NCBI GenBank assembly: GCA_031400935.1
Contig: JANNQV010000027.1
Coordinates: forward strand, 124,001-188,000
Direction: 5' to 3'
Length of the DNA stretch: 64,000 nucleotides
Source of the DNA: Armatimonadota bacterium
GTDB taxonomy: Bacteria; Armatimonadota; Fimbriimonadia; Fimbriimonadales; Fimbriimonadaceae
The notes below the pieces were generated by a model that saw only the letters and a program-made list of their open reading frames with translations, searched no databases and was not told the origin of the DNA. The stretch's first letter is position 1. Every line of letters begins with the position of its first letter. This document shows, one piece after another, positions 13,994-42,108 of the stretch. The position numbers and the translations under genes are program-made.

Positions 13994-14068
13994 TGGCTGC
14001 CGCAATAAGATTCGAACTTATGACCCGCTGATTAACAGTCAGCTGCTCTACCGCTGAGCTATGCGGCA
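13994..14068 (-). tRNA. tRNA-Asn (GTT)
   Basis: Cloverleaf: TGCCGCA acceptor stem, GCTGA-CT-GTT-AA-TCAGC anticodon arm, TTCGAAT T-loop, encoded CCA. Confidence 0.97.
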
Positions 14069-23581: not shown

Positions 23582-23665
23582 TTTGACTCCAAGATTAGCA
23601 TACAGCAAGAAATTTCCAGTACATAGTAGTTCCCATTGATTACCTCAAGTAGACTGCTGAATGAT

Positions 23666-26600
23666 ATGTTAGCTTCATTTTTTGTAGTATTGATTATGTC
23701 GAGCTCCAGCGTTGAACCGACTCAACTTCGATGCGAATCTCTCACAGATCCTGTTGGAATCGGAACCGCCGCTCCAAGACTTAGCTGGAAAGTTCGGGCG
23801 ATTACAGACGGCCGAGACTTGAGCCAAACGGGTTATCGAATAATAGTTGCAAGCGATCCCAAATCAGTATCGGTTTCTAAGGCCGACATATGGGATAGTG
23901 GAGTTGTTCGTTCGAACGAAACCATTGGCATAACGTATAAGGGAAAACCGCTCCGTTCCAACGATCGCTGCTGGTGGAGAGTTCAGATCGTAGACCAAGA
24001 TGGAAGTGTCTCGCAATGGAGCCCCCCTGCCCAGTTTGGAATCGGATTGCTTAATGAAAGCCACTGGAAGGCGGAGTGGATAGGATTCGATGAACCAAGA
24101 AATGCTTTGAAGTCTAACGATCCATTTGAAGGTGCAAAATGGATATGGGGCGAACCAAAAGTGAAGATTCTTGAGTTTCGTAGGACCTTTAGGGTCGAAG
24201 CTATTCCTTCGAAGGCTAAGCTTAGTATCACTGCTGACGATCACTTTATTGTCACGATGAACAATGCGGAGATTTACCGAAGCAATAGAGATACCGATTC
24301 ATGGCGCAAGCCTGTTGAATTAGACATTTCAAAAAGTGTGGTTCAGGGTGCAAACCAAATTCAAGTGCAAGTTGAAGACACTGGCGGCGACGCAGGCTTG
24401 CTGGCAGTACTGAGTATTGAAAGCTCGGCCACAGGTTCTGTAGTCCTTCGCACGAATAACGAATGGACCGTTTCTCCAACAAAAGATGGCACATTTCGAG
24501 CAGCCAATGAAGTCGCAACTTACGGCGCAAATCCTTGGGGAAGAATCAATCAGGCTTTACTTCTGCCTTCACCTCGCCTGCTTCGAAATGAATTCACCCT
24601 CACTAAGCCAGTTAAGAGTGCGACACTGCACGGAACTGCGCTCGGCCTACTTGATATGCACCTGAACGGTCGTAAAGTAGGCAATGACTATTTCATGCCC
24701 GGTTGGAGCGAATACGGCAAACGCACATATTCATGCAGTTATGACGTAACGAAGCTACTCAAACAAGGTCCGAATGCCTTGGGAATCGTACTTGGGGACG
24801 GCTGGTTTTCAGGCTATGTTGGCTATGGGGGAAGACGGGATCATTACGGTACCAAGCTTCGGGCAAAGGCGCAAATCATCGTGAATTATGTGGATGGGGC
24901 AAGCGAGACAATCGGAACTTCGAAGGATTGGAAAGCGGCTACGGGCCCAATGAAATTCTCGGACTTTCTGATGGGCGAGACCTACGATGCCCGGATTATC
25001 GAAGACGGATGGGACAGGAGCGGAATTCGGGCCAGCAATTGGAAACCTGTTGACGTCGGAAACGATTTTTCAACAACTATCGAGCCCTTTCCAGGACAGC
25101 CAGTTCGCGAAATAACCGTTTTGGAAGCCAAAGCAGTGACCCAACCAAAACCTGGAGTCTATGTACTTGACCTCGGACAAAACATTGCCGGGTTTGCCCG
25201 CCTCAATATTAAGGGAAGAAAGGGACAGGAAATCGTTCTTAGATACGCGGAACGATTGAGTCCCGACGGAACAATTTATACCGACAACCTTCGCGGAGCA
25301 CGAGCGATTGACACTTATATTTGTCGTGGCAGAGGCGAAGTTGAGACTTGGTCGCCACGATTTACCTTTCACGGATTTCAATACATCGAGGTGTCCGGCC
25401 TTGGCCGTCGCCCGGGCAAAAACGAAGTTGTTGGCGTTGCCGTCAGCAGCGACACGCCAAACGCTGGGACAATTGAAACCAGCGATCCGATGATCAACCG
25501 CCTAGTGAAGAACGCTTGGTGGACTCAGCAGATGAACTTCATTGACATACCAACGGATTGCCCTCAGCGAGACGAAAGATTGGGCTGGACAGGCGATGCG
25601 CAGGCTTATATTCGCACGGCGACCTACCTGAACGATGTTCAGCCGTTTTTCACTAAATGGCTCGTTGCACTTGACGACAGCCAGCGAGAAGACGGGCAGT
25701 TCCCTATGGTTGCGCCGGTCAAGGTTGCAGGTTCAGATGGCGGCCCAGCTTGGGCAGATGCAGGCGTAATATGCCCTTGGACAATTTACGATGTCTACGG
25801 CGACCGCCAATTGCTCGAACAGCACTATCCGGCGATGAAGAAATTCGTCGAATTTTGTCGAAAGCGATCTACACCTGACTTATTGCCGCCAAAGGAGTTT
25901 CACGCATTCGGCGATTGGGTGAACATCAACGATCCGACGCCAAATGAAGTGATCTATGAGGCCTATTTTGCGGGAAGCGCGCAAATTCTTTCAAAGGCGG
26001 CATACGTTCTCGGGAAATTGGAGGACGGCTTAGAATATGAGACGCTTTACCGAAGGGTACGGCGAGCTTTCCAAGGGGCTTACACCACCCCGGATGGCAA
26101 GGTCAGCGGCGATTCACAGTGCGCATATGTCTTGGCACTCGGATTTGATCTGCTAGAAAAGGATATGGCGGCCAAAGCCGCCGCACACCTTGTAGCCCGA
26201 ATCGAAAGCAAAGGCTGGCACCTATCAACTGGATTTGTCGGAACTCGCGACATCATGCACGTTTTGAGCAAAATCGGGCGAAACGATGTTGCTTTTCGCT
26301 TGCTTCACAACAAGACTTTCCCAAGCTGGGGGTTTACAATTGCGAACGGCGCGACCAGCATTTGGGAACGGTGGGATGGCTGGACGCCCGACAAAGGATT
26401 CCAAGACCCAGGAATGAACTCATTTGCCCATTACGCTTTTGGGGCGGTTGTAGGCTGGATATTTGCTCAACCTGCCGGAATAACCAACCTTGATGCAGGG
26501 TTCAAAACCGTCAAAATCGCCCCACAAATTGACCCGAATCTGAAATGGCTGAAATCGTCCTACGAGTCCGTTCGCGGGACGATTGTGTCCGAGTGGCGTA

Positions 26601-26731
26601 AAGACGGAAACTCGTTGACGATGCGAGTCGTAATCCCGCCAAACGTTATCGCTGAAATCCACGTACCGGGTGGACCAATTGAAATGGTCGGCTCTGGCGA
26701 GTATACGTATCGGAGCAAAATTGCGAAATGA
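23666..26731 (+). CDS. Alpha-L-rhamnosidase (GH78)
   Basis: PRLSW, DLGQNIAG, FTFHGFQY, PTDCPQRDERLGWTGDA, GATSIWERW, MNSFAHY. Confidence 0.93.
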   Translation: MLASFFVVLIMSSSSVEPTQLRCESLTDPVGIGTAAPRLSWKVRAITDGRDLSQTGYRIIVASDPKSVSVSKADIWDSGVVRSNETIGITYKGKPLRSNDRCWWRVQIVDQDGSVSQWSPPAQFGIGLLNESHWKAEWIGFDEPRNALKSNDPFEGAKWIWGEPKVKILEFRRTFRVEAIPSKAKLSITADDHFIVTMNNAEIYRSNRDTDSWRKPVELDISKSVVQGANQIQVQVEDTGGDAGLLAVLSIESSATGSVVLRTNNEWTVSPTKDGTFRAANEVATYGANPWGRINQALLLPSPRLLRNEFTLTKPVKSATLHGTALGLLDMHLNGRKVGNDYFMPGWSEYGKRTYSCSYDVTKLLKQGPNALGIVLGDGWFSGYVGYGGRRDHYGTKLRAKAQIIVNYVDGASETIGTSKDWKAATGPMKFSDFLMGETYDARIIEDGWDRSGIRASNWKPVDVGNDFSTTIEPFPGQPVREITVLEAKAVTQPKPGVYVLDLGQNIAGFARLNIKGRKGQEIVLRYAERLSPDGTIYTDNLRGARAIDTYICRGRGEVETWSPRFTFHGFQYIEVSGLGRRPGKNEVVGVAVSSDTPNAGTIETSDPMINRLVKNAWWTQQMNFIDIPTDCPQRDERLGWTGDAQAYIRTATYLNDVQPFFTKWLVALDDSQREDGQFPMVAPVKVAGSDGGPAWADAGVICPWTIYDVYGDRQLLEQHYPAMKKFVEFCRKRSTPDLLPPKEFHAFGDWVNINDPTPNEVIYEAYFAGSAQILSKAAYVLGKLEDGLEYETLYRRVRRAFQGAYTTPDGKVSGDSQCAYVLALGFDLLEKDMAAKAAAHLVARIESKGWHLSTGFVGTRDIMHVLSKIGRNDVAFRLLHNKTFPSWGFTIANGATSIWERWDGWTPDKGFQDPGMNSFAHYAFGAVVGWIFAQPAGITNLDAGFKTVKIAPQIDPNLKWLKSSYESVRGTIVSEWRKDGNSLTMRVVIPPNVIAEIHVPGGPIEMVGSGEYTYRSKIAK

Positions 26732-29283
26732 TCGAGCTTCGCGGCGTCTCGAAGCATTATGAAGGGACGCTCGCTCTCAGCGAGATTGATTTAGAGATTC
26801 GGGCAGGCGAAGTTCACGCGATTTGTGGCGAAAACGGGGCAGGCAAATCTACGCTGAATCGAATCCTCGCAGGATCGGTGGTGCCTGATTCAGGCGTAGT
26901 TCTTCTTAATAGCAGACCGCTGAAATTCGGGTCGGTACGAGACTCAGAAGCTGGCGGAATTTCGATGGTTCACCAGGAATCTGCGGCATTTCTGCACCTG
27001 AATGCGGTCGAAAATCACGAGATCATGCGTGAGCCATCCAAGGCGGGCGGTCTTTGGCTTGACCGCTATGAAATGCGAAATCGGAGCGAACAATCCTTAA
27101 AGTCCGTCGAAGAAGAATTCGATGTTGATCGGCCGCTTCTAGATCGAAGCGTCGCGCAAAGGCAAATGGTTGCGATCGCTCGTGCGCTTTCAAGCAATTG
27201 CCGGCTCTTGATCCTAGATGAGCCTACCGCCTCGCTTTCAAAGAAAGAATCAGATTCCTTGTTTTCCGCAATTCGCTCGGTGCGGGAAAGAGGCGTGGCA
27301 GTCCTCTATGTAACGCACCGGCTCGATGAAGTTTTCTTGCTTTCGGACAGGGTCACGATACTTCGGGATGCCAAGAAAATTGCAACGCTTAGAACGAAAG
27401 ATACAAGCCGCGAGGAATTGATAAAGCTGATGGTTGGGAGGGAAATACATAGTCCTCTTCGCCATTCAAAACCTCTCGGCGACGTTAGCTTGGAATTGCG
27501 TGAGCTATCGAAGAATGGCTCTTTTGAAAACATCAGCTTCAATGTTCGTTGGGGCGAAATTGTGGCGCTCACAGGCCTAGTAGGGGCTGGACGGTCAGAA
27601 GTTGCAAGAGCCATATTTGGGCTAGAAAAGCCTGATTCCGGACAAATTATTGGCAACAACAGGAATGGAAGTGAAGTGATCCCGGAGGGTTCAAAGCCGA
27701 ATAGCCTGGGGTCGAACTTGAGAGACCCCAGGTTCGACGTTCTAAGAGATTCCGCGCCCCGGAGGGGTGCCAGCATTGAGAAACGGCACCCTTCATCCGT
27801 TTCCGCAAGGATTGCCCTCGTTCCAGAAGACCGACAGCACCAAGGGCTTCATCATCAGCTCAGCGTCCGTGAAAACATTGCCATGGCTATTCAGAAGCCG
27901 CCAATCAAACAAAGGAAACTTGAAAGACTCGAATCCGAGAGGCAGATAGGGAATTTGTCGGTCAAGACAGAATCAGATTTGAACCTAGTTTCCTCGCTTT
28001 CAGGCGGAAACCAGCAAAAAGTGCTTCTCGCCAAATGGCTGGCAACCGATCCGGACGTTCTCATTCTCGATGAACCGACTAGAGGAGTGGATGTCGGAGC
28101 GAAAGAGCAAATTCATGAGCTGATTCATGAATTTGCCGAACAAGGTGGGGCGGTTCTTGTAATTTCATCGGATATGCCCGAAGTTCTCACTTTGGCAGAC
28201 CGAATTTTAGTGATGCGCCAAGGGAAAGTATCTGGAGAGATTTCAGGGGCAGACGCTACTCAGGAAGCCATTCTTGAACTTGCATTGCCCGTTGAAACTG
28301 ACTCCCAAGAAAAGTCGGACAAGAAAACTCGAAACTGGATTTCGCAAGAAACGGTTGTCGCCGCTTTGATCTTGCTCGTCGGAACCATTGCCGCTCTCGT
28401 CAATCCATCGTTTTTGTCTTGGACAAACATTTCGGACATTCTTGTCAAAATTGCGCCTGTTTTGATCGTTGGCACAATGATGACGCTCGTCATTCTCGCC
28501 CGCGAAATTGACATTTCAGTGGGATCACTGATGGGGCTTTGCGCCGTTGTCCTTGGAATTGCATGCTCTTCTGACCGAATGGGGCTGCCCATTGCAGTTG
28601 GGATATCCATGTGCCTTGGAGTTGGTTTGGTCGGCGGAGTTGTGAACGGCTTGCTCGTTTCAAAGGCAAAAATCCCTTCGATCATTGTCACATTGGGGAT
28701 GCTTACGATTCTGCGCGGCGTGACGGAACTACTCATGGGCGGAAAATGGATTGAAAACATGCCCAATGGCCTTCGCCAATTCGGCACGGGGGCTTTCCTA
28801 AATTTGCCCTATTCCATTTGGGTCGCATTGGCGACTGTTTTTGCAGGAGTCTGGATTACGAAACGCACAAAATTTGGACTTCGTGCTTTTGCTATCGGTA
28901 GCAACCCTGAAGCCGCTGTGATGCGCGGCATTCCCTCAACTCGAATTCGCACTGGCGTCTTTGCTTTAACTGGGATAGCCTGCGGAATCTCCGCGCTCTT
29001 CGGAGCAACGCAACTCCAAGTGATCGAATCTGGGTTCGGCTCAGGTTTTGAGCTGGTAGTTATTGCTTCAGTGATTGTTGGCGGCACCTCGATTCGTGGC
29101 GGGCAAGGTTCGATTCTAGGAACGGTGCTGGGAGCCATGTTGCTCGGTATGATTTCAACGGTTCTCATTTTCCTAAAATTAGGAGAATCAGCAACGTATT
29201 GGGAAAGGGCGATCCAGGGCGGGCTAATTCTTTTCGCCGTTTTGGGAGATCATTTTTGGCGGCAGAGGAAGCAATCCGCATGA
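26728..29283 (+). CDS. Sugar ABC importer: double-NBD ATPase fused to a permease (RbsA-RbsC-like)
   Basis: GENGAGKST, LDEPTA, VPEDR, LSGGNQQK, DEPTRGVDVGAK, then IDISVG and GGTSIRGG permease motifs in one frame. Confidence 0.9.
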   Translation: MIELRGVSKHYEGTLALSEIDLEIRAGEVHAICGENGAGKSTLNRILAGSVVPDSGVVLLNSRPLKFGSVRDSEAGGISMVHQESAAFLHLNAVENHEIMREPSKAGGLWLDRYEMRNRSEQSLKSVEEEFDVDRPLLDRSVAQRQMVAIARALSSNCRLLILDEPTASLSKKESDSLFSAIRSVRERGVAVLYVTHRLDEVFLLSDRVTILRDAKKIATLRTKDTSREELIKLMVGREIHSPLRHSKPLGDVSLELRELSKNGSFENISFNVRWGEIVALTGLVGAGRSEVARAIFGLEKPDSGQIIGNNRNGSEVIPEGSKPNSLGSNLRDPRFDVLRDSAPRRGASIEKRHPSSVSARIALVPEDRQHQGLHHQLSVRENIAMAIQKPPIKQRKLERLESERQIGNLSVKTESDLNLVSSLSGGNQQKVLLAKWLATDPDVLILDEPTRGVDVGAKEQIHELIHEFAEQGGAVLVISSDMPEVLTLADRILVMRQGKVSGEISGADATQEAILELALPVETDSQEKSDKKTRNWISQETVVAALILLVGTIAALVNPSFLSWTNISDILVKIAPVLIVGTMMTLVILAREIDISVGSLMGLCAVVLGIACSSDRMGLPIAVGISMCLGVGLVGGVVNGLLVSKAKIPSIIVTLGMLTILRGVTELLMGGKWIENMPNGLRQFGTGAFLNLPYSIWVALATVFAGVWITKRTKFGLRAFAIGSNPEAAVMRGIPSTRIRTGVFALTGIACGISALFGATQLQVIESGFGSGFELVVIASVIVGGTSIRGGQGSILGTVLGAMLLGMISTVLIFLKLGESATYWERAIQGGLILFAVLGDHFWRQRKQSA
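27681..27794. repeat. Palindromic REP-like element embedded in-frame in the ATPase gene
   Basis: CCCGGAGGG at 27681 and 27758; stem CCTGGGGTC (27705-13) / GACCCCAGG (27724-32); stem GGGTGCC / GGCACCC. Confidence 0.65.
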
Positions 29284-31357: not shown

Positions 31358-31385
31358 TTGGCAAGGCTCGATTGAGCCTTGCCAA
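31358..31385 (-). terminator. Intrinsic terminator downstream of the S8 protease
   Basis: TTGGCAAGGCTC-N4-GAGCCTTGCCAA followed by TTTT on the minus strand. Confidence 0.7.
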
Positions 31386-31394
31386 AGAGTTCAA

Positions 31395-32876
31395 CTATTC
31401 GCCATAGATTGTCTTGCTGGAAAGGTCTACCGCGCTGTTGCTGGTTCCCCAAATCACGCGGTCTGCCCAAACTGAAGTTCCCCAAATGACGCGACTGGAG
31501 TCAAGAACGTCCAGGCTGGTTCCCCAGATAACTCTCGTTCCCCAGACGACGCGAAGATCGTTCACACCTTCGGTTCCCCAGATCACTCGATTTCCGTTGA
31601 TGTCAGTTCCCCATATAACGCGCAATGGATCCACAATCACGTTGCCGTTCGCATTCTGAATCAGGCTAGGGCTGAGAACCGGCATCGTGGGGACGGCAGT
31701 GCATCCTAACGCTGCTGGAATGTTGATGTATCCCGCTCCATACGTGCAAGGATCTGAATCGCCGTTAGGATCGAGCAACTTGTCCGCTGAGATCATCAAA
31801 CGTGCCTTAACCGTGTCTGGGGTTAATGTCGGGCTCTTCTGAAGCATCAGTGCGACAGCTCCGGATACTACAGGCGCCGCCATCGAAGTGCCAGACAATC
31901 TGAAGTACTCCTTAGAGCGATTCGCTCCTTGAATACCGTTTATATAGAATGATTTCAGAATGCGGTTAGTACCATAGTTTGTTGACAGGTAACTACCATC
32001 AGCGTCCACTGAAACGATCTTATTGCCTGGCGCGACAATGTCGGGCTTCAAAACGAAATCTAATCGAGAAGGCCCACGGCTAGAGTAGGTAGCGATAAGG
32101 TCGTTTGTGCGACCCGCTTCCGTCTTCTTCATAGCGCCGACAGTAATTACGAAAGGAGAATTTCCTGGAGATTGAATAGAGCCGTAAGCAGTACCCCATC
32201 CGTCATTGGGGTCGCCTTCCGTCTGAATTTCATTCGAGCGGCCGTTGTTGCCCGCCGCGCAAACGACTACGATTCCAGCCTCCCAAGCGGCCTTAACTGC
32301 TAAGCAGAGAGGGTCAGTCATGTGCCCTTCTCCAACCGGATGGCCGAGCGATAGGTTCATGACACGAATTTTGTATCTGTCCTTATTGGCGATCGCCCAT
32401 TGGATGCCGGAAATGACTTGGCTGACCGTACCTTTCCCTTGGGAATCCAGAACTCTAACATTCACAAATTGGACTTGTCGCGCAATTCCGTAAAATGTAC
32501 GAGAGTAATCCTCGCCAGTCGAGTCAAAGCCGCTACCGCCGATGATCCCTGCAATATGTGTTCCGTGGCCGCACTTATCTTCGGCGTTTGTGTTGTCCGT
32601 AGTGAAGTCCTTCGTGAAGATTATGCGGGAGGAGCCCGTCGTTATGTCTTTAAGATCATTCATCTGATGAATGCCAGAATCTAAGACAGCTACCGTGACA
32701 CCCTTTCCCGTAAGTCCGAACTGGCTGAAGGCAAGGTCGGCTCCGGTATGTTGAACGGTGAATTCATCGGCATATGCCGGGAGACTGACGCCTGCGAGCA
32801 TTCCTAGCAGGCTTGCTTGGGTCGCGATTGCTCCCAACGTACTCCTAATGCGATAGTTCTTAGTATTCGTTTTCAT
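31395..32876 (-). CDS. Secreted S8 subtilase (AprX-like) without a prodomain, with C-terminal RV(I/V)WGT repeats; alternative start 32894
   Basis: Triad VLDSG / HGTHIAG / GTSMAAP, oxyanion AAGN; signal peptide ending PAYA followed directly by DEFTV...GLTGKGVTV. Confidence 0.92.
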   Translation of the reverse strand: MKTNTKNYRIRSTLGAIATQASLLGMLAGVSLPAYADEFTVQHTGADLAFSQFGLTGKGVTVAVLDSGIHQMNDLKDITTGSSRIIFTKDFTTDNTNAEDKCGHGTHIAGIIGGSGFDSTGEDYSRTFYGIARQVQFVNVRVLDSQGKGTVSQVISGIQWAIANKDRYKIRVMNLSLGHPVGEGHMTDPLCLAVKAAWEAGIVVVCAAGNNGRSNEIQTEGDPNDGWGTAYGSIQSPGNSPFVITVGAMKKTEAGRTNDLIATYSSRGPSRLDFVLKPDIVAPGNKIVSVDADGSYLSTNYGTNRILKSFYINGIQGANRSKEYFRLSGTSMAAPVVSGAVALMLQKSPTLTPDTVKARLMISADKLLDPNGDSDPCTYGAGYINIPAALGCTAVPTMPVLSPSLIQNANGNVIVDPLRVIWGTDINGNRVIWGTEGVNDLRVVWGTRVIWGTSLDVLDSSRVIWGTSVWADRVIWGTSNSAVDLSSKTIYGE

Positions 32877-32909
32877 GTTCTTAACCCTTTTCATTCAGAT
32901 CAGAAGAAC

Positions 32910-32998
32910 TTCGGTAACTAGGCTGCCATTCGCCTGTCGCGGCGAGAAGGCCCTTTAGCTTTGCGTCCTGCCCTTTCGGATCAGTTTGCCAGTTCGGA
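32910..32998 (-). ncRNA. Cyclic di-GMP-I (GEMM) riboswitch
   Basis: Minus strand GGCAAACTGATCC-GAAA-GGGCAGGACGCAAAGCTAAAGGGCCT...ATGGCAGCCTAGTTACCGAA matches the GEMM consensus. Confidence 0.92.
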
Positions 32999-33125
32999 TA
33001 CTTCGTGTTTTCGTAGTAGATTTTCTGATTCGCTAATGAAATGCTCTAGCATCCTTTTCTAGTGCAGTACCACTCTCGATTGCTGGCCGTGCCGGCCAGG
33101 TGCCCTAATTATTCGGTTTCTCCGT

Positions 33126-33536
33126 CTATTTGATCATGCCGTCCAGCGACACCCTTTGCACAAAGGAAAGTGCCACCACCTTTGGCAGATTCCGATTCGG
33201 GATTCGGGCAGCTACAGACCGGATAATTGGCAAGCGGCGGTAGATGTCGCAGCCTAGTGCATTGAGCTTGTGGTCTCTATCCGGCGTCAACTTGTCCAGC
33301 TTCAAAATCACCGATGTCCAACCAGACTTTGGAAGCGAAGATAGCTTTTGCGCGATTGGAGAATCGCACTTGCTTGTTATCCCATTGGAATTCGCATTAG
33401 TGCCAAGGTTCACTAGAACTACCGCTGCCAGCAGATAACGAGCAAAGGAATTCCCTGACTTCGAACTTGCCCTTACGTCAGAAAGCTTTACCGCGAGGCG
33501 GTTCCGGTTTTCATGTCCTTCGTTGCAATTCAACAT
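33126..33536 (-). CDS. Stand-alone subtilase prodomain (inhibitor I9-like) with a signal-like segment
   Basis: Hydrophobic YLLAAVVLVNL; then SVILK...LNALGCDIYRRLPIIRSVAARIP.RNL.KVVALSFVQRVSLD. Confidence 0.75.
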   Translation of the reverse strand: MLNCNEGHENRNRLAVKLSDVRASSKSGNSFARYLLAAVVLVNLGTNANSNGITSKCDSPIAQKLSSLPKSGWTSVILKLDKLTPDRDHKLNALGCDIYRRLPIIRSVAARIPNRNLPKVVALSFVQRVSLDGMIK

Positions 33537-33872
33537 CTATTCCACTTCTCAATGAACGAACATGCCACAGAACGGTCTGCAGAGTTCGCTATGAACAGTT
33601 CATGCCATGGCCTTCGGATGGAAACCACTACAAAGAGTGCTAGTTATTGCAAAGGGTGAATTCTGGCAGTGGCGTTGGCTCTGACTTCGTGGTGCGGACC
33701 GATGTTGGAAATAGTGTTAGCTAGTAAGTTCTAAACATATAACAGTCCTTTATAGGAATGTAAAGGCGAAATTATGGCAATAACAATACTAGTTAGATAT
33801 GTTGCACGTAATATGCCTTAAAAGATACGTTATAGACAATTTTATGCCATAATGATCCTGTAGAGGAACTTT

Positions 33873-34220
33873 ATGAGAATTATCGCCAAGCTGTCTGACT
33901 CAGCAATACTCCAAGAGATCGGAGTGCGAATGGCAGCAATCCGGCTTCAAAGGAACATGACGCAAAAGGAACTGTCAGAGCGATCTGGAGTCTCGATACA
34001 AAGCGTAAAGCGGCTCGAATCAGGCGAGGTCGCCACTCGACTTTCCATATTCATTGCCATCTGCCGAACCCTCGAGATATTGGACCGATTTGAAGTATTG
34101 TTGCCTACTCCAACGCCGCGCCCTATTGATCTCTTCAAGTTGCAAGGCAAAGTACGGCAGAGAGCGCGAAAAAGTAAGTCCGAGAAGTCAGCTCCTTGGG
34201 AATGGAGCGAAGGCCAATGA
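33873..34220 (+). CDS. XRE-family HTH antitoxin (HipB-like)
   Basis: RLQRNMTQKELSERSGVSIQSVKRLESG; RBS GAGGA; ATGA overlap with the HipA gene. Confidence 0.88.
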   Translation: MRIIAKLSDSAILQEIGVRMAAIRLQRNMTQKELSERSGVSIQSVKRLESGEVATRLSIFIAICRTLEILDRFEVLLPTPTPRPIDLFKLQGKVRQRARKSKSEKSAPWEWSEGQ

Positions 34221-35512
34221 TCGCAGAAGTCATTCTTTGGGGCAAGAGGATCGCAGTTGTCAGCCAGGACGAAAATCAGAGCTTTGCGACGTTTCAATAT
34301 GAGCCGGGTTTTTCAAAGAGCGGAATCCAAGTTTCCCCGCTTATGATGCCGCTTCGAGACGATCCCTACGAGTTCCCAGCTTTGCCTTTTCAAACCTTTC
34401 ATGGGCTGCCAGGCCTGCTCGCCGATTCGCTTCCAGATCGGTTCGGCAACGCATTGATTGACGCATGGCTAGCACGTGAAGGAAGGCCGCCGGAGTCTTT
34501 CTCGATTCTCGAAAAGTTATGCTACATCGGCGAACGAGGCATGGGCGCCCTCGAATTCAAACCTGTCACAGGGCCAAAGCTTAACAAGACAAGTTCGCTT
34601 CAGATCAGTCACTTGGTAGACCTCGCCAATCAAGTGCTGGATGAGCGGTCTGGTTTTATCGCAAATTTTTCGCCATGTTCAAAAACAAACAGCATCGCCG
34701 ATATTTTGCGAGTGGGCACTTCAGCCGGCGGAGCAAGAGCAAAAGCTGTTATCGCATGGAATCCAAAGACCAACGAAGTTCGGTCGGGGCAAGTTAAAAC
34801 AGAATCTGAATTTGAATACTGGCTCCTCAAGTTCGATGGAATCCGAGATAACCAGGATAAAGAACTCGCAGACCCGAAAGGTTTTGGAGCCATCGAATAT
34901 GCATACAGCCTCATGGCAAAAGAGGTCGGAATACAAATGACGGATTGCCGACTGTTTGAAGAAAATGGCCGACGGCACTTTACAGCCAAGCGATTTGATC
35001 GCCTCGCCGAAGGAGGAAAGCTGCACATGCAGTCGCTATGCGGCATTGCTCATTACGATTTTAATCAAGCTGGCGCATATTCATACGAGCAAGCCATGAT
35101 GGCGATGCGAACCCTCAAATTAAACAAGTCGGAAGTCGAGGAGCAGTTTCGAAGGGCAGCGTTCAACATCGTTGCGCGAAATCAGGACGATCATGTCAAA
35201 AACATTGCATTCTTAATGGACCGCAATGGTGGATGGACTCTATCCCCAGCATACGACTTGACTTACAGTTACAATCCCGAAGGAGATTGGACATCTGCCC
35301 ATCAAATGACCCTGAACGGCAAGAGGGACAACTTTCTACGGGAAGACATCATGGCTTGTGCGAAGGCGGGCGGGATCAACCGCCAAGATGCCGTAAGAAT
35401 CTTTGAACGGGTCTTGCAAGTAGTTTCTCAGTGGAACACCTTTGCAGCCGAAGCGAAAGTCTCAGATTCCACGGCCGCGAAGATTGGACGCACTCACCGC
35501 TTGACGATTTAG
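34217..35512 (+). CDS. hipA: HipA-family kinase toxin
   Basis: DSLPDRFG, GTSAGGARAKA, WLLKFD, KRFDR, NQDDHVKN, LSPAYD. Confidence 0.92.
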   Translation: MIAEVILWGKRIAVVSQDENQSFATFQYEPGFSKSGIQVSPLMMPLRDDPYEFPALPFQTFHGLPGLLADSLPDRFGNALIDAWLAREGRPPESFSILEKLCYIGERGMGALEFKPVTGPKLNKTSSLQISHLVDLANQVLDERSGFIANFSPCSKTNSIADILRVGTSAGGARAKAVIAWNPKTNEVRSGQVKTESEFEYWLLKFDGIRDNQDKELADPKGFGAIEYAYSLMAKEVGIQMTDCRLFEENGRRHFTAKRFDRLAEGGKLHMQSLCGIAHYDFNQAGAYSYEQAMMAMRTLKLNKSEVEEQFRRAAFNIVARNQDDHVKNIAFLMDRNGGWTLSPAYDLTYSYNPEGDWTSAHQMTLNGKRDNFLREDIMACAKAGGINRQDAVRIFERVLQVVSQWNTFAAEAKVSDSTAAKIGRTHRLTI

Positions 35513-35738: not shown

Positions 35739-35816
35739 TTGGTTTTCGTACACGCATCACAACATCATCACCACGTAGCGTTATTGCTGCGGTGCTGTTG
35801 CGCATTGAAAATCTAG
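35739..35816 (+). CDS. hisL: his operon leader peptide (M)VFVHASQHHHHVALLLRCCCALKI
   Basis: TTG start, CAC..CAT CAT CAC CAC His codons, TAG at 35814; TATTAT -10-like box at 35724-35729. Confidence 0.75.
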   Translation: MVFVHASQHHHHVALLLRCCCALKI

Positions 35817-35833
35817 TAAAACTCAGAATTAAT

Positions 35834-35876
35834 CAAAACAGGCTCACCGCACAAGCGGTGAGCCTGTTTTGTTTTT
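35834..35876 (+). terminator. his attenuator terminator
   Basis: CAAAACAGGCTCACCGC-ACAA-GCGGTGAGCCTGTTTTG then TTTTT; upstream GCGGTG (35789-35794) can pair with the left arm. Confidence 0.9.
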
Positions 35877-35887
35877 GGAACATGCTT

Positions 35888-36259
35888 ATGAAGTTAAACT
35901 TTGTTAAACTTGATGGACTCATACCCACTATCGTTCAGGATGCGATCAGCGCAGAGGTGCTAATGGTTGCCTTCATGAACGAGGAGGCATGGCGAATGAC
36001 TCTTGAAACCGGATATGCGACCTTCTGGAGCAGGACCCGCGGCAAGCTTTGGCTTAAGGGTGAGAGCTCGGGCCATAGGCTTGTCGTTCGAGAAGTCCTA
36101 ACAGACTGCGACCAGGACGCGATCGTTCTGAAGGTCGAAGCTCAGGGACCAGGCGTTTGTCACGAAGGTTATGCAAGTTGCTTCTTCAAAACCCTTAAAG
36201 ACCGTGAATGGATAGTGGCCGCAGATCGCACGTTCGACCCGGCTGAGGTTTACCTATGA
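35888..36259 (+). CDS. hisI: Phosphoribosyl-AMP cyclohydrolase (monofunctional)
   Basis: [39 protein letters not shown]. Confidence 0.93.
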
Positions 36260-37125
36260 AACTCAAGCTTGGGATTCCAAAGGGCAGCCTTGAGGCGGCA
36301 ACCATTGAGCTCTTTCGCAGGGCGGGTTTCAACATCGCAGTTCGTAGTCGCTCCTACTTTCCATCGATTGACGATCCAGAGATTGAGTGCATGCTCATTC
36401 GGGCTCAGGAAATGGCGCGCTACGTCGAAAATGGGGTTCTCGATGCGGGATTTACGGGAGTCGATTGGATCGCGGAGTCACAAGCCGACGTGGTGCGTGT
36501 CGCCGACCTGATCTACGCGCGCCAAAGCTTTGGAAAAGTGCGATGGGTTATTGCTGTTCCCGAGGATTCGAGCATACAAACCGTTGGTGATTTGGAAGGA
36601 AAGACCATCGCCACCGAACTTGTTGCGACCACAGAGCGGTTCTTGAAAGATAACGGTGTGACAGCGCGCGTGGAATTCAGTTGGGGTGCTACCGAAGTCA
36701 AGCCGCCCGTTCTTGCAGATGCGATTGTAGAGGTCACAGAAACAGGTTCCTCCCTTCGGGCAAACAAGTTGAGAATCGTGCAGACCGTTCTCGAATCGAA
36801 TACCCAACTAATTGCCAACAAAGACTCTTGGCAGGATGAAGGAAAGCGCCAAAAACTTGAGGATCTACGTATGCTCTTACAAGGCGCGATCGAAGCGGTT
36901 GGTAAGGTGGGGCTCATGATGAACGTGCATCGAGACAACCTTGACGAGGTACTTACGGTGCTACCAGCCTTGAAACAGCCTACTGTGTCTCCGCTCAGTA
37001 GTGGCGATTGGCTTGCCCTCAACACAATACTGGAAGAGTCACTTGTTCGGACCATTATTCCTCGACTAAAGCGAGCAAAGGCGGAGGGCATTGTTGAGTA
37101 TCCGCTCAACAAGATCGTGCCATGA
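36256..37125 (+). CDS. hisG: ATP phosphoribosyltransferase (long form)
   Basis: [31 protein letters not shown]-terminal regulatory domain PTVSPL. Confidence 0.95.
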
Positions 37126-38366
37126 TTCGAATCCTCAACGCAGCAGAAGCAATTCCGTTGTTCACCAGAAAGAACAACCGGCTAATTGAAGTACGAGAAG
37201 AGGTCAAGGCAATTCTGGATGAGGTCGAAAAGCGTGGAGACGCTGCGATTCGAGACTTTGCTATGAAATTTGATGGTTTCGACCGCTCTTCCTTCATAGT
37301 TAGTGAAGAAGAATTGGTTAATGCCGAACGGTCAATTGACCATGCATTGAGGTCGGCAATTGAGACTGCAGCCCAAAACATTCGGTCGTTTGCCAAACTG
37401 CAGATGCCTTCTGAGTTTCTGACCGAACTCGCACCCGGTCACTTTGTCGGGCAGATCGTTCGCCCGTTGGAAACTGTAGCGGCATACGTACCGGGAGGGC
37501 GGTATCCGCTGCCATCAACGGTACTTATGACTTGTATCCCCGCTCTAGTAGCAGGAGTTCCGAATGTTTGGGTGACCACTCCGAAACCCGACCAGGCCGT
37601 CTTCGCTGCCTCGAAGATAACAGGGGCAACGAACATAGCTCTGATCGGAGGCGCCCACGCAATCGCAGCGTTTGCCTTTGGTACCGAAACGATTCCCAAG
37701 GCAAACCGAATTGTCGGACCGGGAAACGTCTATGTCACCGCTGCCAAGCAGATATTGGCTGGCAATGTTGGAATTGACTTTGTCGCCGGACCAACCGAGG
37801 TAATGATTCTTGCCAACGAAGGAAATCCGACTTGGATCGCAGCCGATATGCTTGCACAAGCCGAGCATGATACAGATGCCTGCGCGTTCTTGATTACTAC
37901 CTCGAAGTCCCTAGCTGAGGCGGTTTCGGAACAGATTGATAGTCAATTGGCTGTGTTGCCAACTGCCGATGTTGCCCGTGCTGCGATTAGCTCAAACAGC
38001 GCCATCGTCCTCTGTGAAACCAGCGATCAAGCCTTTGATCTTGCTAATATGGCTGCTCCGGAGCATTTGTGTCTCGCCGCCAGAAGCGAACTTCCTCGCG
38101 TTGCGAATGCTGGAAGCGTGTTTATTGGTCCTTACAGCCCAGAAGCAGCTGGGGATTACGTGTCGGGACCGAACCACGTCTTACCAACATCAGGTGCAGC
38201 GCGCCTTTCTGGAGGTTTGTCAGTTCTCGATTTTGTCAAAATCATCACCGTTCAAGAGCTCTCCCGAGATGCTCTGGAGCACGTAGGACGAGATGGAGCA
38301 ACGTTGGCGCGTGCTGAAGGATTAGAAGGACATGCTCGGTCAATTGAGGTGAGACTCAATGCCTGA
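37122..38366 (+). CDS. hisD: Histidinol dehydrogenase
   Basis: [41 protein letters not shown]. Confidence 0.96.
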
Positions 38367-39429
38367 GCCTAAACCTGCAATTGAGCGGATGCTTCCGTAC
38401 CACCCGCCGACCGGAAATCGGGATGGAATGCTGAGGCTAGACTTCAACGAGAATACGCTTGGATGCCCTCCTCACGTTTTGAACGCGCTGTCTGATGCAC
38501 TTTCAGGTGATTTGCTCGCAACCTACCCTGATTACAAGATGGCGCGGCAACAACTCGCAGACTTCTTTGACGTCAAAGAAGCTCAACTCTTGTTGTCAAA
38601 CGGAACGGATGAGGCGATCCAGCTACTTGTCAACACCTTTGTCGGGCCGGACGATGAAGTTGTTGTGCTTTGCCCAACCTACGCAATGTATCGGTTCTAC
38701 GCGGAGATTGCAGGGGCCGATGTACGGGAAGTCTTTTACCAGGATCGGCCTGGTAGCGAACCATATGAGCGAGTTCTGCAAGTCGACGTCACCGATATTC
38801 TGGCCAAAGTTAGCGAAAGGACACGAGCGATCTTTCTTCCCAACCCGAACAATCCAACCGGATCGACGATTAGCATGGAAACGATTCTGGAGGTCCTACA
38901 TGCAGCCCCTCAATGTTGCGTCCTCGTTGATGAAGCGTACTTCGACTTCTGGGGTGTTACAGCGTTGCCGCTCATCGAGCAAAATGAGAACCTTTTCGTA
39001 AGTCGCACCTTCAGTAAGGCATACGGTCTTGCGGGAGTGCGATTCGGGTGCCTGATGAGCCACGCCAAGAACATAACCAACATGAGAAAGGCACAGTCCC
39101 CATACAGTGTCAATGCGCTCTCGATGGTCGCAGTTCTTGCCGCAATCCAAGATCGTGCTTGGATTGACGAGTATTCGAATCAGGTTCGGCTGGGCAGCGA
39201 GTTGCTTGAGCGCGAACTGCAGAAACATTGCTATCCGTATTGGAAGTCCCATGCAAACTTCATTCTGTTTGATGCAGGCGATCAAGCCGAAGCCCTCCTG
39301 GAACGGTCTCGAGCAGCAGGCGTGCTGATCAGGGACCGTCGCCACGATCTGCCATGCGCCTTGCGAGTCACGGCGGGACCATCCGATCAGATGGAAAGAT
39401 TTGTCAGAGTATTGGAGGAAGTGCGATGA
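38359..39429 (+). CDS. hisC: Histidinol-phosphate aminotransferase
   Basis: [34 protein letters not shown]. Confidence 0.95.
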
Positions 39430-40013
39430 GGGAAGCGAAGCTGGAACGGATCACGACCGAGACGCAGATCAAAGGATCGCTAAGGATCGAAGGGTCGGGG
39501 AAATACAAGGTTGAAACCGGAATCGGGTTCATGACCCATATGCTGGAGCTCTTTGCAAAGCATGGAGGGTTCGACCTCGAACTCGTTGCCACGGGCGACC
39601 TCCAAGTCGACCAGCATCACACGGTCGAGGATCTCGGAATTGTCTTAGGAGAGCTCTTTGAAAAAGCGTTAGGCGATCGCAAGGGTATCAACCGGGCAGG
39701 CTATTTTGTCCAGACTATGGACGAGACTCTCGCTGTAGTCGCCCTCGATCTTGGGGGTCGGCCGGCCTGCATCTATAACGATAAAGTCAGAGCACGGCAT
39801 GTTGGGGGACTGACGGTTGAGTTGCTCCACGACTTCTTCGAGGCTTTTTCTCGGTCTGCGCGGGCAAACGTTCATGTAAAGGTTCTTTACGGTCGCTCAA
39901 GCCATCATAAGATTGAAGCAGTGTTTAAGGGTTTTGCCCGAGCGTTGAAGTTTGCATGCTCGACCGACTCGAGATTGAAGGACCAACTTCCTTCGACAAA
40001 GGGGCTGCTTTGA
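39426..40013 (+). CDS. hisB: Imidazoleglycerol-phosphate dehydratase (monofunctional)
   Basis: [27 protein letters not shown]. Confidence 0.95.
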
Positions 40014-40585
40014 TTGCTCTGATTGATTACGGCGCCGGGAATCTCTTCTCGGTTTCAAATGGGCTGGAAGCCATTGGAGCTCAGTTTCACCTTGTCCGAC
40101 ACCCTTCGGAAATGGGTCCCGACGACGCAATTCTACTGCCCGGAGTGGGCCACTTCGGACAAATGATGAGGGCGCTTGATGATCTAGATTTTAGGGCGCC
40201 GTTGATCGCTGCCGCAGGCGCAGGCCGGCCCTTGCTTGGAATCTGTCTTGGCATGCAAGCCTTATTTGAGTGGAGTGATGAGGCACCAGGCACTCCTGGA
40301 CTAGGGTTGCTTCCTGGAACCGCCCGGTTACTTCCCGATACCTGCCGGCTACCCCATATGGGATGGAACAGAGTGAGTTTTGTCGGAGCGAGTTCTGAAT
40401 GGTTTTACTTTGCTAATAGCTATGCACTGCCAAAGAACGATGCAACCTGGGGCACGACCAACTATGGTGGCGAATTCAGCAGCGCAGTGCGGAAAGACAA
40501 TCTCTGGGGATTCCAGTTTCATCCAGAGAAATCGGGCCCGGCTGGCCTAGAACTGCTCGCTCGGTGGTGTTTTGATGCTTGCTAA
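40010..40585 (+). CDS. hisH: Imidazole glycerol phosphate synthase glutaminase subunit
   Basis: [35 protein letters not shown] start overlapping the hisB stop. Confidence 0.95.
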
Positions 40586-41333
40586 GCGCATCGTGGCTTG
40601 CCTTGATGTCGCTGAAGGGCGCGTGGTCAAGGGGACAAACTTTGTGAACCTTCGAAACTCGGGTGACCCAGTTGAATTGGCAAAGCGATATAGCGACGAA
40701 GGAGCGGATGAAATCGTATTTCTGGATATTGGCGCCTCGCATGAAAGTCGCCCAACTCTCCTCGGAATCGTATCCAAGGTCGCAAGACAAGTGTTCGTTC
40801 CTCTTTCGGTTGGCGGAGGAGTCCGGTCAACTTATGATGCCCGTTTACTATTTAACGCTGGGGCTGACAAGGTTTGCGTAAACAGCTCCGCGGTTAGTCG
40901 GCCCGAGCTGCTATCCGAACTCTCAAGCGCCTTTGGAGCTCAGGCAACCGTTCTCGCAATTGACGCCAAACAATCTGCCGATGGTTGGGTTGTTTACGTC
41001 ATGGGTGGAAGAGAAGCGACCCGACTTAACGCGATAGATTGGGCAAGGGCAGGACAGGACGCTGGTGCGGGCGAGATATTGCTCACGAGCATGGACACAG
41101 ATGGAGTGAGGCAAGGGTTTGAATTGGGTTTGGTGAATGAGGTTTGTGGGGCCACCAATATTCCAGTCATAGCGTCTGGCGGAGCGGGATCGGCTGGACA
41201 CTTTGTCGATCTTTTCATGAAAACAGAAGCCAGCGCCGGACTTGCGGCATCGATCTTTCATGAGCGTTCTACTTCAATCTCATCTATTAAGGAGGCTCTT
41301 TGTTCGGCCAATATCATGGTGAGGCCAGCGTGA
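40575..41333 (+). CDS. hisF: Imidazole glycerol phosphate synthase cyclase subunit
   Basis: [42 protein letters not shown]. Confidence 0.96.
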   Translation: MLAKRIVACLDVAEGRVVKGTNFVNLRNSGDPVELAKRYSDEGADEIVFLDIGASHESRPTLLGIVSKVARQVFVPLSVGGGVRSTYDARLLFNAGADKVCVNSSAVSRPELLSELSSAFGAQATVLAIDAKQSADGWVVYVMGGREATRLNAIDWARAGQDAGAGEILLTSMDTDGVRQGFELGLVNEVCGATNIPVIASGGAGSAGHFVDLFMKTEASAGLAASIFHERSTSISSIKEALCSANIMVRPA

Positions 41334-42028
41334 TCATTCCCTGCATCGATCTGATGGGCCAGAAGGTGGTTCAACTTATCCAGGGCAAGGAGAAGGCTTT
41401 GGAAAGGACGGTTGATGAAACGCTGGAGTTGTTTGAAGGATTCCCACTCTTTCACATTATTGATTTAGATGCTGCACTTGGATCAGGCGATAACCATGCG
41501 ATGGTGATGGCTCTGCTCAATCGATGCCGCGCCCGTGTCGGCGGCGGCATCCGTTCAATTGAGCGAGCGAGAGACCTGATTGAGGCGGGGGCACATCAAG
41601 TGATAATCGGTTCCGCTGCGTTTAACGAAACAGGGTTGAATGCAACTCTTCTTAATGAACTTGTTCGCGAATTTGGCGCTTCCCGAATCATCATCGCGAT
41701 AGACTCTAAGGGCGGGCGAATCGCGGTGAGTGGGTGGAAAACGGTATTGGATCGAACGCCAGAGCACGCGATGCAAGCTTTGGCTCCATTTTGTGCTGGC
41801 TACCTTTGCACCAATGTAGACCAAGAGGGCCTTTTGCAGGGCACGGATCTCGAACTGTTCATAAACCTGCGCGCAAGAACGGACAAGATCTTAGTCGCCG
41901 CCGGAGGAATCACGACGATGAGTGAAATTGACGCGCTCACTGAAGTGGGAATCGAGGTCGCGTTGGGCATGGCTGCTTATACGGGTCGCCTCGATATCGT
42001 TGAGCTGCGCCGCAAAAGCGTCTGTTAA
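41330..42028 (+). CDS. hisA: ProFAR isomerase
   Basis: IIPCIDL..KVVQLIQG, HIIDLDAA, VGGGIRS, AAGGI; GTG start. Confidence 0.9.
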   Translation: MIIPCIDLMGQKVVQLIQGKEKALERTVDETLELFEGFPLFHIIDLDAALGSGDNHAMVMALLNRCRARVGGGIRSIERARDLIEAGAHQVIIGSAAFNETGLNATLLNELVREFGASRIIIAIDSKGGRIAVSGWKTVLDRTPEHAMQALAPFCAGYLCTNVDQEGLLQGTDLELFINLRARTDKILVAAGGITTMSEIDALTEVGIEVALGMAAYTGRLDIVELRRKSVC

Positions 42029-42032
42029 AATT

Positions 42033-42108
42033 TGGTGGAGATGAAGGGGCTCGAACCCTCGACCTCTGCAGTGCGATTGCAGCGCTCTCCCAGCTGAGCT
42101 ACATCCCC
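42033..42108 (-). tRNA. tRNA-Ala (CGC)
   Basis: GGGGATGTAGCTCAGCTGGGAGAGCG-CTGCA-AT-CGC-AC-TGCAG...TTCGAG...ATCTCCACCA; G3-U70 pair. Confidence 0.97.

Follow-up and report, generated by a model that had tools for sequence, protein, structure and literature searches.

We analysed a 64,000-nt stretch of DNA, called the window here, from an Armatimonadota bacterium (genome G000; contig JANNQV010000027.1). In this window two neighbouring genes, on the minus strand like every other part of the locus, encode the two pieces of a subtilisin-type precursor separately. The upstream open reading frame (ORF), ORF1, encodes a propeptide. The downstream ORF2 encodes an S8 protease (subtilase) that has none, and a cyclic di-GMP (c-di-GMP) riboswitch lies between them. 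On balance, we think that ORF1 is a trans-acting propeptide that serves the prodomain-less subtilase, and that the locus descends from a tandem pair whose upstream gene shrank to a prodomain that the downstream enzyme borrows. Subtilisin is the textbook intramolecular chaperone, and its refolding with added propeptide is known in vitro. A protease without a built-in folding helper, with a helper in the neighbouring gene, suggests that a one-chain step is done here between two proteins.

By homology and predicted fold, ORF1 is a true subtilisin-type propeptide in its own gene. It is a closed 136-aa frame in two species rather than a piece cut from a larger precursor. Searches against Pfam and NCBIfam matched no family, but homology to the prodomains of fused homologs is clear (up to 60% identity). 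Strands (E) and helices (H) of the structure model follow the I9/subtilisin propeptide order (E73-80, H85-93, E97-102, E107-113, H114-121, E126-131). Foldseek matches the model to 3afg (E-value 3e-4) and 2z58_B (E-value 9.5e-4, root-mean-square deviation 1.7 Å). S130 and D132 of the ORF1 register are invariant in all 88 fused homologs; presumably they are equivalent to Glu69/Asp71, the helix-capping pair near the C-terminus of the BPN' propeptide in the available text of PMC6993865. The prodomains of the two fused paralogs resident in G000, and of the C39 gene of a second species (G001), are 21-27% identical to ORF1, compared with up to 60% in the wider subfamily of ORF2. Hence, ORF1 is the sole close-matched propeptide in G000. 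The closest prodomains belong to homologs from other families, which suggests that ORF1 and ORF2 arrived together. The putative signal peptide of ORF1 is less convincing than that of ORF2, with a 34-residue n-region and an Asn in the h-region; both were assigned by eye and homology only. A MicX match inside ORF1 (19.8 bits, cut-off 75) was discarded as chance.

ORF2 (32876-31395, minus strand, 493 aa) is an S8 protease with an intact triad, and is predicted to be proteolytically active. It matches Peptidase_S8 with 182.6 bits (cut-off 21.8), and D66, H104, N210 (oxyanion hole) and S331 are invariant in a 101-row alignment. The most likely start is the ATG at 32876, since G001 has ATA in place of the ATG at 32894. 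The prodomain profile has no match within ORF2, though an in-chain N-terminal propeptide is usual for secreted S8A members. The best PDB matches are 9ues and Tk-SP (3afg). The structure model has a pTM of 0.88, with low confidence at residues 461-480. Most ORF2 homologs are labelled 'serine protease AprX' by their source records, and homologs named Chthonomonadaceae point to a host in the phylum Armatimonadota. The W-G columns of the C-terminal tail are nearly invariant across the family, in fused and prodomain-less members alike. The tail has no Pfam match and is unmatched in the PDB alignments; it could be an assembly, sorting or surface-binding module.

An earlier reading of the bare sequence, the first-pass annotation, had already named these parts. 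Its ORF coordinates agree with our sequence, ORF calls, Rfam and Peptidase_S8 profile results. Its I9-like prodomain, ending SLDGMIK-stop, is borne out by the propeptide fold (model and Foldseek) and the homology to fused prodomains. It also described an ORF2 whose signal peptide joins the mature domain directly, with an intact D/H/S triad and no prodomain, and the junction at D37 and the profile searches agree. The Asp that it placed at 32768 is D37, where the mature domain begins; the catalytic one is D66.

ORF1 stops at the junction where fused precursors continue. After S130-x-D132 the 88 fused homologs have V135 (81 of 88), K or R at 137 (all 88), a small or variable residue at 138, and then D (87 of 88). 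Codon 137 is Lys in 86 of them and Arg in 2; ORF1 has TAG there, one base from AAG. ORF1 ends two residues before the mature Asp, and both residues are present at that spacing in 85 of 88 fused homologs. Should the mature enzyme begin at this Asp, as the 13 prodomain-less proteins imply, ORF1 would end at P3 and lack P2-P1.

In a model of the complex, ORF1 docks on ORF2 with an ipSAE of 0.91, compared with 0.00 for the best of three controls. The runs share at least 98% of contacts, and partner pLDDT is at least 91. The mark for this score is reached by 116 of 157 solved complexes and by 2 of 215 mismatched pairs. Complex prediction had been proposed as a check by the first-pass annotation; since propeptide-subtilisin complexes are solved, the high score may reflect solved look-alikes, and it shows likeness rather than binding. 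The modelled interface is canonical: the ORF1 sheet lies on ORF2 residues 147-162 and 187-196, the tail on 147-151 and 177-179, and S130/D132 touch 151-152 and 188-189. H104, N210 and S331 are absent from the confident contacts. The four residues at the C-terminus of ORF1 would not fill S4-S1, if the cleavage site lies where we place it.

According to the accessible text of PMC12474785, the last four residues of a foreign propeptide (TKSpro) fill S1-S4 in its complex with Tk-SP, and the S1 residue matters for inhibition. An L69A substitution reduced yield four-fold (same text). A propeptide without its last two residues still crystallised on subtilisin, going by the title of PDB 3a3n. Because ORF1 lacks the putative P2-P1 tip, it fits a foldase better than a tight inhibitor, and we infer that it would be a foldase before an inhibitor. 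The first-pass annotation had proposed a combined chaperone and inhibitor. The two missing junction residues weaken the inhibitor half.

The arrangement of the locus (Table 1) is the same in G001, a different species of the same genus with about 82% nucleotide identity to G000 across 108 kb of alignments: ORF1, a stop at the same place, a gap, the aptamer and a prodomain-less ORF2. The gap from the ORF1 stop to the aptamer is 125 nt long, and another 33 nt separate the aptamer from the ORF2 ATG. The hairpin past the ORF1 stop is identical in G001, and a terminator scan gave no call for it on the minus strand. A profile search in three frames found no remnant of a catalytic domain in the gap of either species.

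Table 1. Features of the split subtilase locus (positions in the window)
Feature	Position	Strand	Basis or remark
ORF1 leader, conserved non-coding (candidate promoter or 5' untranslated region)	33537..33683	-	comparison with G001
ORF1 (P0002, 136 aa)	33126..33536	-	putative signal peptide ~1-50 and stand-alone subtilase propeptide ~54-136
ORF1 stop codon TAG	33126..33128	-	position of near-invariant Lys in fused homologs
GC-rich hairpin, 7 bp, 27 nt past ORF1 stop, without U-tract	33083..33099	-	sequence and fold
c-di-GMP-I (GEMM-I) riboswitch aptamer	32910..33000	-	RF01051, 64.2 bits
ORF2 short expression platform and ribosome-binding region, 33 nt	32877..32909	-	terminator-free
ORF2 putative signal peptide, residues 1-36	32769..32876	-	sequence; A-Y-A end directly before D37
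ORF2 S8 catalytic domain, AprX-like, residues 37-410	31647..32768	-	PF00082, 182.6 bits
ORF2 C-terminal tail, six hydrophobic W-G repeats and conserved end motif	31395..31646	-	sequence
Intrinsic-terminator-like hairpin 3' of ORF2	31358..31385	-	12-pair stem, then T-run

Prodomain-less enzymes like ORF2 are more widespread, and older, than the split. Thirteen of the best 120 homologs listed, ORF2 included, run from signal peptide straight into the same Asp, and the prodomain profile is blank in exactly these 13. Their signal peptides end in Ala in 12 cases and Gly in one; one of these proteins (P0003) matches the ORF2 of G001. With two Armatimonas loci added, the D, H, S and N motifs are kept in all 15 prodomain-less rows. 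We placed these 15 rows in a 44-row tree together with 29 fused rows picked from a 133-row tree (P0007 was left out). A single weakly supported group (81/90) takes in 14 of the 15, and the fused P0061 is nested within it; the prodomain-less P0010 pairs with the fused P0008 (100/96). The tree needs at least three changes of prodomain state. By this phylogeny, an exact prodomain deletion arose, or was undone, more than once. A single origin of the prodomain-less form is rejected (approximately unbiased test, P 0.006).

The stand-alone prodomain is much harder to find. Among 401 genomes drawn from the phylum there are 123 prodomain matches in 56 genomes (the genome sets are samples, and many genomes are fragmented). 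Nine of the 122 matches other than ORF1 lie in frames shorter than 400 aa; eight of these continue into catalytic sequence and one (L056) is cut by its contig end. In the class, whose 228 genomes were all searched, there are 26 matches, two of them in short frames, those of G000 and G001. Twelve further short or broken frames are fused genes, frameshifts or contig ends. A word-based search of proteins of 74-238 aa found only the cluster of P0002, with two members. A HMMER search of 1.84 billion representatives gave 111 matches, and the short ones end at scattered places, mostly within the prodomain or past the catalytic start. About ten end at most six residues from the junction (for example P0129, P0149, P0206 and P0214); they are indistinguishable from contig-end fragments and were not counted. 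Scanning for the junction pattern yielded two loci in genome contigs and none in metagenome contigs. A looser pattern in 71 genomes gave mostly chance hits, with a subtilase in one of 30 loci, the known L093. A related-locus search in metagenomes returned four loci, two fused genes and two partial matches. The first-pass annotation had suggested looking for the same split with riboswitch elsewhere, and G001 is where it recurs.

Two loci of one Armatimonas genome, L008 (2708-5876) and L009 (2657-5699), show what the ancestor may have looked like. In both, a prodomain-less gene starts 1 nt past a full-length paralog's stop, and no aptamer separates the two. A prodomain source thus lies directly upstream on the same strand in all four loci of known context (G000, G001, L008 and L009, in three genomes). 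This points to a prodomain borrowed in trans and to ORF1 as a shrunken upstream tandem member rather than half of a gene that was cut in place. A check put forward by the first-pass annotation was whether both ORFs tile one ancestral protein; they match a fused precursor to within two residues. Yet one gene cut in place is probably not the origin, as ORF2 belongs to a wider prodomain-less set with signal peptides of their own. The Armatimonas pairs, present twice in one genome, are a system in their own right and worth testing. At L064 (1417-1818) only the C-terminal end of a second subtilase stands behind the third full-length gene of genome G365, apparently a decayed prodomain-less partner.

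The riboswitch is not special to the split; it is the ordinary leader of the subtilase family. The aptamer is a full-length, ordinary member of the c-di-GMP-I class (RF01051; 64.2 bits against a cut-off of 35, E-value 2.9e-10, model positions 1-87 of 87), which agrees with the GEMM riboswitch of the first-pass annotation; in G001 it lies at C6:1314-1404. All three above-cut-off aptamers of G000 directly precede its three subtilase genes. Each of the 56 subtilase-bearing genomes tested contains an aptamer, and one precedes many fused homologs across the phylum. A crude pattern, which misses many aptamers that Rfam finds, places one before 33 of 59 distinct gene starts, and in 27 cases the distance to the first in-frame start is 17-50 nt. 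Neither Rfam nor the pattern scan finds an aptamer for ORF1 itself. As the aptamer lies downstream of the ORF1 stop and 33 nt before the ORF2 start, it can gate ORF2 only. Hence, gating of the protease alone, as first proposed, follows from position. Control of an inhibitor:enzyme ratio by design does not, since the aptamer is an inherited family leader.

No terminator-like site was found between the aptamer and the ORF2 start, which makes translational control probable. The bases ahead of the ORF2 ATG can be covered by a hairpin, whose 5' strand pairs with the 5' flank of the aptamer in a competing helix. The two helices lie within 1-3 kcal/mol and their energy order flips between G000 and G001, so either an ON or an OFF switch would fit. 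We take the aptamer start, G-G-C-A-A-A-C, to mark the c-di-GMP type. A crude motif scan of G000 gives seven GGDEF-like hits, about five of them in plausible context, and three HD-GYP-like ones. Across the phylum the subtilase family looks like a main c-di-GMP output. Tandem arrays of three fused subtilases occur at G139:C1:1354936-1361302, G244:C1:4268418-4274588, G209:C1:953152-960216 and G351:C4:275725-281692. Many of their genes have their own c-di-GMP-I aptamer (in G139 each of the three), and some have two in tandem. By the crude pattern, the first motif base of the aptamers of L019, L022, L026 and L032 is A rather than G, which presumably affects the choice between c-AMP-GMP and c-di-GMP.

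Comparison with G001 indicates that ORF1 is under purifying selection, which the first-pass annotation had named as a test. Over the whole ORF, differences fall on 15 of 105 synonymous and on 10 of 303 non-synonymous sites, a ratio of non-synonymous to synonymous divergence (dN/dS) of 0.21 (Fisher P 1.9e-4; 25 substitutions in all). For residues 54-136 the counts are 11 of 65 and 5 of 184 (dN/dS 0.14, P 2.7e-4). Non-synonymous sites (proportion differing, pN) have also diverged less than the non-coding gap (P 0.014). Because both copies carry the stop, these changes most likely post-date the truncation. The ORF1 leader has 7 differences in 147 nt, fewer than the synonymous sites of ORF1 (15 of 105; Fisher P 0.012), and its conservation ends abruptly. 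It has no Rfam match, no sigma-70 consensus and no stable fold (z +0.46), and no further copy turned up in the genome or, G001 apart, in the fetched loci. Divergence steps up sharply at 32876, the ORF2 start, from 5-10% upstream to 23-32% from the signal peptide on. In the catalytic domain of ORF2, pN is 0.17 and synonymous sites are saturated (pS 0.77). The C14 paralog has a milder step, with dS of 0.24 in signal and prodomain and 0.55 in the catalytic part.

How would such a pair work? Both proteins would be exported by Sec. Signal peptidase alone would give ORF2 its mature N-terminus, and no self-cleavage would be needed. In the manner of subtilisin propeptides, ORF1 would bind the folding intermediate of ORF2 at its two surface helices and aid folding. 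Ending at the presumed P3, it would block the active site weakly and act mainly as a foldase and transient brake. Through the ordinary family leader, c-di-GMP would control translation of ORF2 alone, in either direction. The origin would be a tandem pair of a full-length and a prodomain-less gene, like the two Armatimonas loci. The upstream gene would have gained a stop at the junction Lys and then lost its catalytic part, and its prodomain would have been kept because the downstream enzyme needs it.

A broader claim is tempting, although we hold it only tentatively: a family of secreted subtilases in this phylum may repeatedly have shed its propeptide and borrow one in trans from a neighbouring gene. 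This locus would be the end point, where all that is left of the donor is a dedicated foldase without the inhibitory tip. Such a helper would not be bound one-to-one to its enzyme and could serve repeatedly, so c-di-GMP could raise active protease at once. If true, there would be no delay from self-cleavage or propeptide degradation, and the chaperone and inhibitor roles of the subtilisin propeptide would be naturally separated.

Several points weigh against a trans-acting propeptide. Binding, the folding role and the expression of ORF1 and ORF2 are predictions only, and so is the cleavage site on which the missing P2-P1 depends. No RNA data set was listed as containing the locus, which bears on expression in neither direction. 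Some subtilases, Tk-subtilisin among them, reportedly fold without a propeptide (title of Pulido 2006, cited in PMC12474785). The stand-alone prodomain is found in G000 and G001 only, in one genus. The context count covers four loci, and 11 other prodomain-less proteins stand outside it. Across homologs, prodomain similarity and catalytic-domain similarity to the pair are uncorrelated (rho 0.02, n 121), and the prodomain tree is without resolution. The selection signal rests on 25 substitutions. At 0.16-0.19, synonymous divergence (dS) is lower in ORF1 than in any of 61 background genes, whose minimum is 0.24 and most of which lie at 0.5-1.5. Overall divergence is about equally small in the non-coding flanks and in ORF1 (5-10% compared to 6%), and neither has indels. 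The low dS together with the step at 32876 indicates that the block from ORF1 leader to aptamer was shared recently, by recombination or under strong constraint. The two copies thus fall short of deep, independent evidence. The step may reflect an exchange of the catalytic gene or a recent transfer of the block upstream of it.

These points leave room for a different, though in our view unlikely, history: ORF1 is a young non-functional remnant of a full-length paralog, ORF2 folds alone or with propeptides from the two resident fused paralogs, and the riboswitch is simply the leader of ORF2. The stop one base from a near-invariant Lys codon fits such a remnant, and so does its confinement to two genomes. 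The recently shared block leaves little time for decay, non-coding flanks are as conserved as ORF1 overall, and tandem arrays of this family do decay, as the broken third copy in L064 shows. However, a remnant would not be expected to keep a dN/dS of 0.14-0.21 between two stop-bearing copies, a pN under the divergence of the non-coding gap, or a conserved leader. The absence of any catalytic trace in the gap implies a clean loss at the domain border, and the resident prodomains share only 21-27% identity with ORF1. If ORF1 is a remnant only, a set of subtilases that mature without a cis propeptide remains, which is of moderate interest.

Alternatively, ORF1 could be a dedicated stand-alone inhibitor of I9 type, like POIA1 or SUB1-ProM, while ORF2 folds unaided. 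Steady ORF1 would then set a threshold for c-di-GMP-driven enzyme synthesis to exceed. This idea, closest to the first-pass annotation, seems to us quite improbable. A propeptide-less enzyme has no built-in brake, and the aptamer gates ORF2 alone. Propeptide-like inhibitors in separate genes are known, and SUB1-ProM adjoins subtilase genes (available text of PMC6993865). Cells that express a propeptide as a separate chain are shielded from Tk-SP, the closest solved relative of ORF2, but the last four residues of TKSpro fill S1-S4 (accessible part of PMC12474785), whereas ORF1 lacks the presumed P2-P1. The complex model likewise makes no confident contact to H104, N210 or S331. Rejoining of the two parts into a normal precursor, by splicing, stop read-through or DNA rearrangement, or an artefactual junction in the assembly, is largely refuted and very improbable. 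The two parts do tile a fused precursor to within two residues, and a riboswitch-controlled self-splicing intron is known in Clostridioides. Yet a single 27.6-kb Logan contig covers 31200-34300 with 0 differences (it may be the source of the window DNA, hence not independent). No Logan joint crosses the gap, and the other runs, X4-X6, are short near-identical pieces of the ORF1 5' part or of ORF2 that do not span it. The layout recurs in G001, the gap has stops in all three frames in both species, and Rfam-type searches find no intron family in it. ORF2 also has its own signal peptide, as do 12 other prodomain-less proteins, and a dN/dS of 0.09. Misassembly, one refutation named by the first-pass annotation, is thus rejected together with splicing and read-through.

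A trans-acting propeptide would set the locus apart from the systems it resembles. ORF2 shares catalytic domain, triad and signal peptide with AprX-like and Tk-SP-like S8A subtilases (PF00082; 3afg, 9ues). These have a cis propeptide and mature by self-cleavage, whereas ORF2 has no propeptide, signal peptidase would make its N-terminus, and it adds the W-G tail. LipA/Lif also pairs an exported lipase with a neighbouring gene for a private folding helper, the lipase-specific foldase, but the Lif fold is unrelated to ORF1 and not propeptide-derived. Whether the propeptide's folding role can be split from its inhibitory one has been examined by means of engineered truncations. When the Tk-subtilisin propeptide is co-expressed with Tk-SP, a separate propeptide sits on the two-helix face of the catalytic domain, as modelled here; those uses are engineered (accessible text of PMC12474785) or in vitro, whereas this locus is natural and ORF1 lacks the putative P2-P1 tip.

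Stand-alone I9 inhibitors named in the available text of PMC6993865 come from fungi, plants and apicomplexans: POIA1, yeast peptidase B inhibitor, Arabidopsis subtilisin propeptide-like inhibitor 1, TgMIC5 and Plasmodium SUB1-ProM. Like ORF1, they are small genes of their own with a propeptide fold, and SUB1-ProM adjoins subtilase genes. All are eukaryotic, and the first three are described there as mimics without significant sequence similarity to propeptides. ORF1, in contrast, shares up to 60% identity with fused prodomains and is by homology a true propeptide; the enzyme beside it has no propeptide in its chain. PopC/PopD of Myxococcus xanthus shares a bacterial secreted protease restrained by a separate protein and a second-messenger input, (p)ppGpp. 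PopD, however, blocks secretion and is degraded on starvation, and nothing in the accessible text of PMC6434023 makes it a propeptide; for ORF2 the messenger would act on enzyme synthesis via RNA.

In the literature (mostly open literature, without supplements) we met no natural bacterial subtilase whose propeptide is encoded by a gene of its own. Nor did we find a link of the c-di-GMP-I riboswitch to this subtilase family in this literature, although supplements, whose gene-context tables could list it, lay outside the search. ORF1 would be a bacterial example of a stand-alone propeptide gene, otherwise found described in eukaryotes only. The natural pair and the natural prodomain-less enzymes with active sites kept would make the need for a helper, its single or repeated use and the role of the missing tip testable in wild-type proteins. 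The riboswitch link would mean that c-di-GMP controls a multi-copy secreted protease family across a little-studied phylum. The exact architecture rests on two related genomes, and the regulatory twist is less special than first claimed.

Beside ORF1, a divergent helix-turn-helix gene (HipB-like matches that miss the cut-off) and a HipA-family gene (NF007297 at 45.9 bits, likewise short of the cut-off) occupy 33873-35512 on the plus strand. They resemble a toxin-antitoxin pair next to a possibly imported cassette; the helix-turn-helix gene adjoins the locus in G001 too. Labels for the remaining protein-coding neighbours were given by eye. An 851-aa ORF at 26728-29283 (plus strand) is an apparent fusion of a sugar ATP-binding cassette ATPase and permease; the same operon contains a glycosidase-like gene (23636-26731), another permease and a binding protein. 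Histidine biosynthesis genes lie at 35792-42028 on the plus strand. Two tRNA genes are found at 13997-14068 and 42036-42108.

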